Virus record (IMG/VR): IMGVR_UViG_2579778535_000004
Coordinates: 1 to 17,059 of that record
Length of the DNA: 17,059 nt
From: a virus
Lineage: Duplodnaviria; Heunggongvirae; Uroviricota; Caudoviricetes
Reading direction: 5' to 3' (one strand)
In this document: positions 13,538 through 16,174 of the stretch, piece by piece
Position numbering within the stretch: the stretch's first letter is position 1
Layout: every line of letters starts with the position of its first letter
Position numbers and translations under genes: made by a program
Notes under the pieces: generated by a model
The model's database searches: none
Told to the model about the DNA's origin: nothing
What the model saw: the letters and a program-made list of their open reading frames with translations, nothing else

Positions 13538-13591
13538 ACAATATGTACCTCCGGTGTACATACTACATGATTAAAATGAACCTTCAAGATA

Positions 13592-13612
13592 CTTGTACCT
13601 TAACGGTACAAG
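13592..13612. promoter_or_regulatory. Palindromic operator in the CI/cro divergent promoter region
   Basis: CTTGTACC-TTAAC-GGTACAAG, with perfect 8-bp arms, overlapping a candidate plus-strand promoter (TTGTAC, 17 nt, TTTAAT) whose start site would fall at the CI ATG. Confidence 0.5.
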
Positions 13613-13627
13613 GGTTTTAATTTCGTT

Positions 13628-14302
13628 ATGAAAACAATCCATGACATCCGGCGGTCTAACGCCAGAAAACTGAGAGATGGTGTAGGCGGGAATTCTTCCT
13701 TTGCCACTATGATTGATCGCGAGCCAACCCAGACCAGCAGGTTTATGGGAGATGGTGCTACTAAAAATATCGGTGACAGCATGGCACGACACATCGAAAA
13801 ATGTTTCGACCTGCCTGTCGGATGGCTCGATCAAGAACACCAGACAACCAACATCACAAAAAAACCTGATGTTTCAATCACTAATAAACAAATCACATTA
13901 GTCCCTGTCATATCATGGGTACAGGCCGGAGCATGGAAAGAAGTTGGATATTCTGAGGTTGATTTGAGCACAGCAGAAACGTATCCCTGCCCTGTACCCT
14001 GTGGGGAAATGACTTATATCTTGCGGGTGATAGGTGATTCAATGATTGATGAGTACCGCCCGGGAGACATGATTTTTGTCGATCCTGAAGTACCTGCCTG
14101 CCACGGTGACGACGTTATTGCATTGATGCACGATACAGGTGAAACCACCTTCAAAAGGTTGATAGAAGATGGGACACAGCGTTATCTCAAAGCGTTAAAC
14201 CCAAACTGGCCTGAGCCTTACATTAAGATCAACGGTAATTGCTCTATAATTGGAACTGTGATTTTCTCAGGAAAACCAAGAAGATACAAAATCAAAGCCT
14301 AA
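13628..14302 (+). CDS. CI-like repressor (HTH plus S24 LexA-type autopeptidase domain)
   Basis: 224-aa ORF with an N-terminal HTH, an Ala-Gly cleavage site (VQAGAWKE), the catalytic Ser in VIGDSM and a Lys in TFKRL. Confidence 0.85.
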   Translation: MKTIHDIRRSNARKLRDGVGGNSSFATMIDREPTQTSRFMGDGATKNIGDSMARHIEKCFDLPVGWLDQEHQTTNITKKPDVSITNKQITLVPVISWVQAGAWKEVGYSEVDLSTAETYPCPVPCGEMTYILRVIGDSMIDEYRPGDMIFVDPEVPACHGDDVIALMHDTGETTFKRLIEDGTQRYLKALNPNWPEPYIKINGNCSIIGTVIFSGKPRRYKIKA

Positions 14303-14341: not shown

Positions 14342-14374
14342 TTGACAATGTACCTTTGAGATACATAATGTATC
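14342..14374 (+). promoter_or_regulatory. pL-like promoter with an overlapping palindrome (candidate operator)
   Basis: TTGACA at 14342-14347, a 16-nt spacer, then CATAAT at 14364-14369. The palindrome GATACAT-A-ATGTATC (14360-14374) covers the -10. Confidence 0.4.
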
Positions 14375-14473
14375 CAAGAGAAACAAAAAACAGGCAGGAC
14401 GCCCACGAAGTAGCCGCCGGTGGCGTATGAATGACCGGATGATTCGTTAAATACTATGTGTAAGAGAGCGCAA

Positions 14474-14677
14474 ATGAACCGTTATTTCACATGCTCGTTT
14501 TGTGGCGCAAACGAGCTGCAGGCAAAAAAAATCATCGCCAAAGGCGGAAAAGATGAAGTTGCTATCTGCTCTGAGTGCGTAGTCTTGTGTGTCGGGGCAT
14601 TAATCAATATCAGCACAACTATTCAGTTCACACCAAATGAGAATGCGCCTTTAGATGCGCGGAAATCTGGAGGTTAA
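14474..14677 (+). CDS. Small zinc-ribbon protein resembling the ClpX N-terminal zinc-binding domain
   Basis: FTCSFCGANELQAKKIIAKGGKDEVAICSECVVLC parallels the ClpX zinc-binding domain (CSFCG ... ICDECV-LC). The start is taken at the internal ATG at 14474, preceded by AGAGAG. Confidence 0.5.
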   Translation: MNRYFTCSFCGANELQAKKIIAKGGKDEVAICSECVVLCVGALINISTTIQFTPNENAPLDARKSGG

Positions 14678-14685
14678 AGAACAAA

Positions 14686-14961
14686 ATGAAAGTCCAGATT
14701 TTAAACAATAGTGGTGAAGTCGTTTGGTCATACGACATAGCCGCTCCTGTAGATCAGAGCGGCGATAGCTGGACCAATGGGAAACATCAGATTATGGCTG
14801 GAGTTGTGTTCTCTTTACGCCGTGCTTTAGAACAGGCTGAAGTCTTTCCATCAGACCCTGAATGGAAATGGCCTTTTTCTATTTGTCCAAATTCGGAGAG
14901 TACATTTCAGAAAATTGGTCAGAAAGTCGCACTCGAAGAGCATCAGCCAACTGTTTCCTGA
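14686..14961 (+). CDS. Hypothetical protein, second gene of the left operon
   Basis: 91-aa ORF with GGAGG about 12 nt upstream. Its 3' end overlaps a convergent ORF by about 83 nt. Confidence 0.45.
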   Translation: MKVQILNNSGEVVWSYDIAAPVDQSGDSWTNGKHQIMAGVVFSLRRALEQAEVFPSDPEWKWPFSICPNSESTFQKIGQKVALEEHQPTVS

Positions 14962-15124
14962 TTTTTTCAGGTAACTCGTCGGCATCGCAGAAACAACAAC
15001 GCTCGATCATGTTGAAAGCCGATTCGTAGAACTGTTTTTGCTGAGTGTCGCTGAGACAGGAAAAGAGCGACGTTACGATGATTTTATTAATTGCATTATC
15101 AAGTTCTTTTTCATCAAAAGTCAT
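14879..15124 (-). CDS. Hypothetical protein, convergent with the left operon
   Basis: 81-aa ORF with AAGGA about 8 nt upstream of the ATG at 15122-15124 and protein-like composition. Confidence 0.45.
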   Translation of the reverse strand: MTFDEKELDNAINKIIVTSLFSCLSDTQQKQFYESAFNMIERCCFCDADELPEKIRKQLADALRVRLSDQFSEMYSPNLDK

Positions 15125-15378
15125 TTGATTTTCCTTTTATGTATACGGGCTTAAAAGGATACCACCGAGCCTGAAGTGGTGAAAAGACAGGCACATAACA
15201 GCTAAGTATTTTCAACCAGAGAGAATCCTTAGCGTTGTGGTGAATGCGGCTCAGCGCACACGGGTTAAGGTTGAGGCTGACAGTCGACCTTCTGTGGATA
15301 CCCACCCGCCTGGTGTGCAACCTTCGCCAGGCACCGGGAGGCACCCGGCACCACAACTTTATGCTGTGTGTAGTCTTA

Positions 15379-15423
15379 GCGGTACCAGCTTGTACCCTTG
15401 CTTCCGGCTGGTACCGTCCTTTT
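15379..15423 (+). terminator. Terminator-like hairpin inside an ORF-poor GC-rich region
   Basis: CGGTACCAGC-17 nt loop-GCTGGTACCG followed by TCCTTTTT. The loop contains CTTGTACC, identical to the operator half-site at 13592-13599. Confidence 0.35.
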
Positions 15424-15637
15424 TACAAAACAGAGAAGAGCATCACCGGACGACGGGCTCATAACCCAATCCATCCGGGCGGCTGCCACCGCAGGTGTTC
15501 TTCTCTGTTTTGTGGAGAAACTAACCGCCCCTACGGGGGCATTTATGGAAATGTAATTGACTCAATAATCGCCGGACGGTGAGGGCTTCCTTTTACCCGA
15601 ATTCAGCGCGGTGCAGCGCATATACGTGGAGAACAAA

Positions 15638-16174
15638 ATGTCATTTATTAAAACTTTTTCCGGGAAGCATTTTTATTATGACAGGATAAATAAAGACGAC
15701 ATCGTTATTAACGATATCGCGGTTTCCCTTTCAAATATCTGTCGCTTTGCAGGACATCTTTCACACTTCTACAGTGTCGCCCAACATGCGGTGCTTTGCA
15801 GCCAGCTGGTGCCACAGGAATTTGCTTTTGAAGCTTTAATGCATGATGCAACAGAAGCATATTGCCAGGACATCCCCGCACCACTGAAACGACTTCTTCC
15901 TGACTATAAACGGATGGAAGAAAAAATAGACGCCGTAATACGTGAGAAATACGGGTTACCTCCTGTTATGAGCACGCCAGTGAAATATGCCGATCTCATT
16001 ATGCTGGCAACCGAACGCCGCGATCTCGGGCTTGATGATGGCTCTTTCTGGCCTGTACTGGAAGGTATCCCGGCAACAGAGATGTTCAAAGTGATTCCAC
16101 AGGTACCGGGCCATGCCTACGGGATGTTTATGGAACGTTTTAACGAGTTATCGGAGTTACGCAAATGCGCATGA
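15638..16174 (+). CDS. HD-domain phosphohydrolase
   Basis: H...HD metal-binding pattern (SVAQHAVLCSQL ... ALMHDATEAY). The start is taken at the ATG at 15638, with GGAGAA 8 nt upstream. Confidence 0.7.
   Translation: MSFIKTFSGKHFYYDRINKDDIVINDIAVSLSNICRFAGHLSHFYSVAQHAVLCSQLVPQEFAFEALMHDATEAYCQDIPAPLKRLLPDYKRMEEKIDAVIREKYGLPPVMSTPVKYADLIMLATERRDLGLDDGSFWPVLEGIPATEMFKVIPQVPGHAYGMFMERFNELSELRKCA

Follow-up and report, generated by a model that had tools for sequence, protein, structure and literature searches.

Which product is made from a prophage segment of about 500 bp that is rich in inverted repeats and carries no convincing open reading frame (ORF)? This question is raised by positions 15125–15637 of the virus record IMGVR_UViG_2579778535_000004, whose 17,059 nt were analyzed as a whole and are referred to here as the window. 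A first-pass annotation of the letters alone had proposed a possible structured RNA. We found that the segment contains a conserved, pseudoknotted RNA core of ~125 nt, which is homologous to the core of the small RNAs (sRNAs) STnc100, PasD, and EcOnc27 and represents a divergent subtype below the Rfam threshold. The stretch as a whole can be read as a plus-strand RNA cluster within the early-left operon of the prophage, from which a trans-acting Hfq-type sRNA ending at 15423 would be released. We consider this reading, whose functional part we infer from the analysis, to be somewhat on the probable side.

A conserved pseudoknotted core related to STnc100

At the gathering thresholds of Rfam, no match was obtained anywhere in the window. 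With permissive settings, the covariance-model check proposed in the first-pass annotation gave a full-length, sub-threshold match to STnc100 (RF02076) at 15204–15426 (40.2 bits, E = 5e-7; gathering score 47). A scan of viral contigs for an invariant 20-mer returned at least 120 loci. These split into type A, the canonical form (GGUGAAUCCCCCUGUGCGGAGGGG), and type B, the form present in the window (GGUGAAUGCGGCUCAGCGCACGCGG). All type-A copies tested passed the STnc100 threshold with 57–208 bits; the 933W copy downstream of stx2B reached 207.7 bits. The type-B loci tested, i.e. the window, eight others, and Qin of Escherichia coli K-12 (34.4 bits), all stayed below 47, in a range of 29–41 bits. 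A covariance model built from type B only (R1) recovered canonical copies at E-values of 1e-7 to 1e-15 over all 130 model positions. Because the type-B model finds the canonical copies and the Rfam score is sub-threshold, type B constitutes a divergent, uncatalogued subfamily of STnc100.

Both types are carried by prophages of Enterobacteriaceae and follow the order core, linker, terminator. Their cores agree in (i) a P1 helix ending in GGUG and the AAU junction; (ii) P2, in which a UNNGC loop caps a 6-bp stem carrying a bulged A; (iii) the pseudoknot with the P4 loop; and (iv) an invariant CCGGG-AGGCA-CCCGG hairpin stacked on P1. Type B differs in its P2 stem sequence, which is fully swapped in a fully compensatory manner, and in its variable region. 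The two types also differ in their setting. Canonical copies are free-standing genes of the late region, neighbored by Q, stx, nanS-p, and tRNA genes. They have a sigma-70-type promoter ~7 nt before P1, a variable linker of 20–45 nt, and a strong terminator, and they occur singly or in tandem arrays of 3–5 units that repeat every ~250 nt, in many cases adjacent to tRNA genes (Table 1). Type-B copies are found in early-left operons or ahead of ORFs, and most of them lack a promoter at P1, whereas the Enterobacter copies have one. In 933W, the AsxR gene is located antisense, just past the STnc100 terminator.

As an sRNA family, STnc100/PasD was already known. EcOnc27/sRNA103 of enterohemorrhagic E. 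coli is an Hfq-bound sRNA of unknown function (PMC12711010), and the same holds for PasD1 and PasD2 of enteropathogenic E. coli, which were identified by RIL-seq (PMC8550237). In a recent preprint, PasD is tied to STnc100 by structure (bioRxiv 10.64898/2026.05.13.724894). In the literature examined on STnc100, PasD, and EcOnc27, no description of the type-B lineage or of the pseudoknot was found, and a full-text literature search for the motif sequences gave no matches. New are the divergent subtype missed by Rfam, the pseudoknotted architecture, which the STnc100/PasD/EcOnc27 family gains as a whole, and the operon and leader contexts described below, including two K-12 loci.

The type-B core is a multi-helix domain and far better conserved than its flanks in SfV, mEp460_4F5, ST64B, 118970_sal3, and phiES15. 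RNAalifold, run on 14 type-B cores, picked P1, P2 with its bulged A and UNNGC loop, P5, and a long-range helix. The latter reads AAGGUUG/CAACCUU in the window, AAGGCUG/CAGCCUU in phiES15, AGACUGACAAA/UUUGUCAGUCU in locus L019, and GAACUGGCA/UGCCAGUUC in locus L011. Since its 3′ strand falls into the loop of P4, the fold is an H-type pseudoknot. P4 itself, for which 47 distinct stem sequences were counted, had a mean of 7.1 contiguous base pairs, compared with 3.9 in partner-shuffled controls. The position of P0, the hairpin abutting the core, is taken in ST64B by a hairpin of other sequence.

Compensatory changes among the relatives, for which the first-pass annotation had suggested to look, were abundant. 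R1 detected a single copy in the window (132.6 bits) and 124 copies in 98 loci, type A included. Across 94 distinct sequences, 95.2% of the cells were paired, as compared with 78.4% in shuffles and 38–45% when partners were slid, and the covariation score was 0.41 versus 0.12 in shuffles. In a less biased set of 52 sequences, the corresponding values were 94.9%, 74.7%, and 35–46%, with a covariation score of 0.47 versus 0.14. In neither set did any of 500 shuffles reach the observed score. The pseudoknot helix was 98.5% paired in the smaller set, with double changes at all six of its six pairs. Even the near-invariant P5 displayed compensatory changes (C:G to U:A and G:C to U:A) once sequences that had not been chosen by their P5 sequence were added. 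The alignments behind the pair counts were fitted to the model and are thereby biased toward the structure; no such fitting enters the RNAalifold prediction, the P4 comparison, or the count of pair types. The RNA is read from the plus strand, since the reverse strand of the window scored only 15 bits with R1 and 49 of the 52 sequences have U:G at one P2 pair.

Composition and folding energy also fit a structured RNA. The GC content is 0.53–0.56 over 15150–15600 versus 0.40–0.46 in the flanks, as had been claimed, and amounts to 0.61 in the core. The minimum free energy was −93.2 kcal/mol for 15195–15430 (z = −3.99; 0 of 200 shuffles as good) and −63.2 kcal/mol for 15418–15560 (z = −7.32 versus shuffles). 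The three inverted repeats listed in the first-pass annotation all exist, with coordinates off by 1–3 nt: the ACCAC and GTGGT arms occupy 15161–15165 and 15176–15180, the 10-bp stem is perfect and followed by CCTTTTT (offset 1 nt), and the third repeat reads GCCCC-TAC-GGGGGC (offset 3 nt). The strongest features (the 9-bp P1, the P5 hairpin, the pseudoknot, and a 25-bp inverted repeat) were absent from that list. While the stretch is indeed structured, it is not one unit, as had been proposed, but comprises at least three separable RNA modules.

A protein-coding gene, namely a ymfH-like ORF at 15244–15582, is an extremely improbable explanation. Its 112-amino-acid (aa) frame is open in the window, RefSeq annotates ymfH over the copy in the e14 element of K-12, and phage records annotate hypothetical proteins. 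In relatives, however, the open part of this frame shrinks to 24 aa (ST64B), 41 aa (phiES15), or 44 aa (locus L047). In the identical genome, the largest ORF is classified by PGAP as a frameshifted pseudogene. Pfam gave no match to any of the mutually overlapping ORFs (80, 75, 112, and 52 aa), and relatives do not preserve any of them as open frames. Substitutions track base pairing, including G·U pairs, and not codons. A frame conserved in homologous regions had been named in the first-pass annotation as the finding that would speak for a protein; no reading frame on either strand is open across the relatives, and the coding explanation is refuted for this reason. The stretch is not coding, and its earlier reading as structured RNA instead of genes is borne out by the Rfam match, the compensatory changes, and the lack of a conserved frame.

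Table 1. Positions of RNA elements, flanking features, and canonical tandem arrays (window coordinates unless a locus is given)
Feature	Position	Strand	Basis or remark
Probable early-left promoter pL	14342..14369	+	TTGACA-16-CATAAT, just past terminator of cI-like ymfK
Hairpin ACCAC-N10-GTGGT	15161..15180	+	In block ~15160-15200 common to mEp460_4F5 and phiES15
P0 hairpin, GCTAAGTATTTTC / GAGAATCCTTAGC	15201..15233	+	Abuts core
Conserved pseudoknotted RNA core, type B	15234..15357	+	Rfam STnc100, 40.2 bits; model R1, 132.6 bits; covariation
P1, 9-bp closing helix, GTTGTGGTG/CACCACAAC	15234-15242 / 15349-15357	+	
P2, bulged A, loop UCAGC	15245-15250 / 15256-15262	+	
Pseudoknot helix	15267-15273 / 15318-15324	+	
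P4	15308-15315 / 15325-15332	+	
P5 hairpin CCGGG-AGGCA-CCCGG	15334-15348	+	Near-invariant
U/G-rich single-stranded linker, UUUAUGCUGUGUGUAGUCUUAG	15358..15379	+	Candidate seed or Hfq-binding stretch
Intrinsic terminator, perfect 10-bp stem, 17-nt loop, CCUUUUU	15380..15423	+	Stem 15380-15389 / 15407-15416
Long hairpin with three-way tip	15420..15518	+	Arms 15425-15449 / 15489-15513, 25-bp inverted repeat
Small hairpin GCCCC-UAC-GGGGGC	15527..15540	+	No U-run on + strand
yfdR-like HD-domain 5′-deoxynucleotidase	15638..16174	+	First protein gene downstream of RNA stretch
Canonical STnc100 tandem arrays	L027 342-1038; L036 1723-2347; L074 4349-5513 and 8357-8555; L017 2265-3380		

Genomic contexts of the type-B core

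The window is part of a lambdoid prophage of the SfV/e14-like type. A 100% identical prophage resides in E. coli VE-T9, where it adjoins a tRNA-Thr gene beside proA. On the plus strand, the cI-like ymfK (13628–14302) is followed by its terminator, pL, two small genes, the RNA stretch, and yfdR, the HD-domain gene that the first-pass annotation had correctly placed behind the stretch. Two further small genes, the excisionase gene, and the integrase gene lie 3′ of yfdR. A promoter scan identified pL as the sole good match 5′ of the RNA on this strand, at a distance of ~860 nt. An operator-like palindrome, ATGTACC..GATACAT, is located between the pL hexamers, and palindromes of the same type occur in the gap between cI and cro (13545–13560 and 13592–13612). 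Gene order and the probable pL upstream place the RNA stretch inside the repressor-controlled early-left operon.

Given these operators, the stretch might act at the DNA level, as a site with extra repressor operators or as another protein-binding or recombination site, a reading to which we attach hardly any probability. The first-pass annotation had noted that the loop of the terminator hairpin repeats the operator half-site. The 8-mer CTTGTACC is indeed present at 15389–15396, and GGTACC occurs twice in the stem. The operator meaning did not hold up, however: chance alone predicts ~0.5 exact matches in the window, and with one mismatch allowed, 18 matches were counted across the whole window versus 9.9 ± 2.8 expected. 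In close relatives with the same repressor type, the loop differs, CTTGTACC being changed to TTTGTACC or TTTGTACA, and no inverted partner exists at the 5-bp operator spacing. In addition, given its G·U pairs, one strand alone can fold. From the sequence, the half-site in the terminator loop is probably a chance match.

In ten phages and prophages, type B separates the repressor gene from the early-left genes and has the orientation of the latter: the window, SfV, ST64B, 118970_sal3, phiES15, mEp460_4F5, loci L011, L047, and L099, and e14 of K-12. In three of these (ST64B, L011, and L099), the RNA is the first element after pL; no ORF that is annotated or convincing lies on the way to it from the repressor gene. 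Other settings were also observed. In loci L019, L066, and L078, type B heads an island of small genes between the terminase and portal genes, with a TTGACA promoter that carries a palindrome ~150 nt upstream. On Enterobacter chromosomes (L142 4820–4946 and L144 742–868), it follows a TTAGAT-17-TTAAAT promoter located ~7 nt before P1, has no terminator, and ends ~25 nt before a gene for a 186-aa LuxR/GerE-like regulator, beside a cytochrome b561-like gene; there it looks like a non-phage 5′ leader. The element is absent from O157 Sakai Sp1 and K-12 CPS-53. In ST64B, the rightward operon (L004 409–597) carries a C4 antisense RNA (79.7 bits) beside isrK (64.3 bits); the window has no C4/isrK counterpart at Rfam thresholds, and papers mentioning ST64B sRNAs contain nothing on its type-B locus.

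Two copies were found in K-12. In Qin, a type-B core fills the spacer between dicF and dicB (83.2 bits, E = 7.5e-20; L150 3452–3587), corresponding to 1,649,451–1,649,586 of NC_000913.3 (E. coli K-12 MG1655). Its P1 is extended to ~18–21 bp and starts 17–19 nt past the 53-nt DicF, where an RNase III cut giving a 72-nt DicF has been reported (PMC9438474, PMC5069750). The second copy, in e14, is 97% identical to the window and lies under the coding sequence ymfH (b1142) on the same strand (L151 5257–5387, minus); its P5 is damaged by a 1-nt loop deletion and a stem mismatch. The RefSeq record of K-12 has no RNA feature at either copy. Membership of ymfH in the YmfT iModulon together with xisE and intE (PMC12132413) fits co-transcription with the early-left genes. 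Over-expressed ‘ymfH’ is also a listed trigger of the retron-Sen2 toxin (bioRxiv 10.1101/2020.06.22.160242). As such a clone would express the type-B RNA, the RNA could be the trigger.

The two K-12 copies imply that ymfH phenotypes and models of dicB expression may have to allow for an RNA, and they make the binding partner of the domain directly testable in K-12. The exact subtype (B1 sequence) is present in 1,844 of 5,426 complete E. coli genomes and carries a routine annotation as a hypothetical protein; copies with 99% identity to that of the window also occur in other E. coli genomes. The same domain is used as a free sRNA in some loci, within operons in others, and as a 5′ leader in a third setting.

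Several of these contexts raise the possibility of a cis-acting, riboswitch-like sensor or protein-binding leader in the 5′ part of early-left and other transcripts. The downstream message would then be made, kept, or translated at a level set by the core, and the terminated RNA would be a by-product. We regard this alternative, the main rival, as possible, if doubtful. Cores that are followed after ~25 nt by a start codon, without an intervening terminator, agree with it (Qin dicB, locus L138, and the Enterobacter LuxR-type gene with its promoter right at P1), as do ST64B, L011, and L099 with no convincing ORF ahead of the RNA, and the combination of invariant junctions and loops with covarying stems is aptamer-like. 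Furthermore, in L025, L011, and L138 an upstream long hairpin shares its 3′ arm with the 5′ strand of P1, so that hairpin and P1 are mutually exclusive. In the window, however, the terminator is separated from P1 by the 22-nt linker, and no alternative pairing with P1 was seen. Nor do the genes that follow the core form a related set, comprising kil, dicB, and genes for a nucleotidase, a LuxR-type regulator, and an esterase, and in the tandem arrays of canonical copies most units have their own terminator. No ligand or protein partner is known, and Rfam yielded no riboswitch match in the window.

Processive antitermination was considered as well. Like the put element of HK022, the core is a structured RNA in the early-operon leader of a lambdoid phage lacking N. 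Bound as nascent RNA to RNA polymerase, it might override the terminator at 15423 and later ones and so replace N. The place of the core in the early-left operon is that of nutL/putL, the annotation shows no N-like gene, and terminators lie between pL and the early-left genes. We nevertheless judge this role very unlikely. The put RNA measures ~70 nt, forms two stem-loops, occurs once per early operon, and acts on polymerase in cis, whereas the core is ~125 nt long and pseudoknotted and has no sequence or model similarity to it. The window covers both early operons in its 17 kb and contains the core once, without a counterpart in the rightward operon, and the put/early region of HK022 gave no STnc100-type match. 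The order relative to terminators is inconsistent, the core standing after the terminator and not before it in L025, L047, and L011; in mEp460 the terminator is kept and only a remnant of the core is left. Finally, canonical copies mostly lie directly before their own strong terminators and accumulate as terminated sRNAs.

Linker, terminator, and proposed mode of action

The core is followed by a U/G-rich linker and a canonical intrinsic terminator, at the end of which the 3′ end is predicted near 15423. Our terminator scan did not flag the hairpin because its loop limit was 8 nt and the loop has 17 nt. ST64B, phiES15, and L019 each keep the motif UUGCUGUGU directly 5′ of a terminator, and these terminators are quite dissimilar. 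In L025 and L047, the motif precedes a terminator that is located ahead of the core. As the motif stays beside the terminator whether before or after the core, the two travel as a unit.

The linker–terminator module weakly resembles DicF. In a global alignment of 15358–15424 with K-12 DicF, the score was 29, compared with 13.5 ± 4.2 for shuffles, of which 2 of 500 reached it. The dicBF operon of Qin yields an Hfq sRNA via termination and processing by RNase E and RNase III (PMC9438474, PMC5069750). Both operons are repressor-controlled early-left operons whose downstream genes need read-through, and both contain a short module with its own terminator, adjoining the same structured core and yielding an Hfq-type sRNA in Qin and putatively in the window. 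The order is reversed, with DicF, core, and dicB in Qin, and core, DicF-like module, and long hairpin in the window; the single-stranded parts also differ (UUUCUGGUGACG vs UUUAUGCUGUGUGUAG). A seed-like single strand directly before a terminator hairpin and premature termination in an operon are features of 3′-end-derived Hfq sRNAs such as DapZ and SroC, too (PMC9438474), although these lack a large conserved 5′ domain.

Taken as an sRNA locus, the stretch would operate as follows. Polymerase starting at pL, or at an unmapped start near 15200, would stop at 15423 and release an RNA of ~190–225 nt consisting of the core, the linker, the terminator hairpin, and a U-tail. The layout of this predicted product is that of the Hfq-bound canonical family members and parallels that of DicF in the homologous dicBF operon of Qin. 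Either the full RNA or a 3′ fragment of ~66 nt, cut after the core as RNase E does on DicF, would act in trans via the linker and Hfq. With read-through, the message running from yfdR to int would include the long hairpin, which RNase III likely targets. The conserved core most likely serves as a binding or stability domain for a host factor.

A number of observations weigh against such an sRNA. The window copy has the terminator but no promoter at the fixed distance from P1 that is seen in canonical copies; the nearest good promoter is pL. Type-B copies without a terminator ~25 nt before an ORF (Qin dicB, L138, L142/L144, and L011/L047) are leader-like, and both the complexity and the near-invariance of the core exceed the needs of a base-pairing sRNA. 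In P2 of the window copy, an A at 15260 replaces an otherwise conserved G, creating a C:A mismatch with 15247. The DicF model of Rfam (RF00039) gave 13.5 bits (E = 8) at 15365–15419, compared with a gathering score of 48, and no match in seven other type-B loci. Because this model rejects the unit, the link to DicF is a lead and not a family assignment. Within the window, no targets of the linker above chance were found. A GcvB-like seed (GcvB R1) was rejected as a candidate, the similarity in the window being reached by 66 of 300 shuffles; it was significant only in L019 (1 of 300).

Long hairpin and neighboring elements

The long hairpin behind the terminator may be cleaved by RNase III or serve the downstream genes as a leader. 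Its G·U pairs and one compensatory change relative to ST64B point to an RNA on the plus strand, and in the loci examined it was found only beside type-B cores. In mEp460 (L131 2350–2500), the terminator and the long hairpin are intact, and all that is left of the core ahead of them is its 3′ end, GCACCGGTCACCACAAC; the core is complete in the hybrid mEp460_4F5.

One branch of the tip (15455–15468, CGGGCUCAUAACCC; DNA CGGGCTCATAACCC) is identical in 14 of 14 positions to the anticodon stem-loop of the E. coli initiator tRNA (metZ), including its three G:C pairs. The chance expectation was estimated as ~1e-4 for one tRNA. In relatives, the stem remains GGG/CCC and the loop is still 7 nt long (CUCAUUA, UUCAUAU, or UUAAUAA). 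ARAGORN and Rfam detected no tRNA or transfer-messenger RNA in the window, so that the 14-nt identity to the tRNA-fMet anticodon arm is the only such similarity. A literature search for a prophage mimic of this arm returned only general toxin–antitoxin reviews.

In a wider proposal, the core would be devoted to binding a host or defence factor, e.g. a protein, polymerase, or ligand, and would head early transcripts as well as free sRNAs. The RNA would then be the trigger behind ymfH and retron-Sen2, and the tip would be a functional mimic that serves, e.g., an anticodon nuclease as a decoy or a translation factor as a binding site. We regard this combination as rather unlikely.

Two small hairpins flank the modules. 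The one at 15161 lies outside the conserved core, displays no covariation, and is terminator-like on the minus strand only. At the equivalent of the one at 15527, SfV has a hairpin with changed bases.

Further observations concern the region between pL and the RNA stretch. On the minus strand, an ORF of 81 aa with a good ribosome-binding site (14879–15124) is antisense to the early-left operon. It would be read toward pL, overlaps the 3′ end of the plus-strand ORF at 14686–14961, and matches ymfI of e14 in position and orientation; PGAP does not call it in the identical genome. The product of the first gene past pL (14456–14677) has 73 aa and a C4 zinc finger of the ClpX type (Pfam, E = 1.4e-10), and the gene occupies the position of N in lambda; the second gene encodes a hypothetical protein. 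The first ~60 nt past pL (14380–14440; AACAGGCAGGACGCCCACGAAGUAGCCGCCGGUGGC...GAUGAUUCG) are kept in ST64B (L004 2672–2730) and in the upstream regions of L025 and L047. Since the phages that share this segment differ in their repressors and operators, its conservation suggests that the leader RNA is functional.

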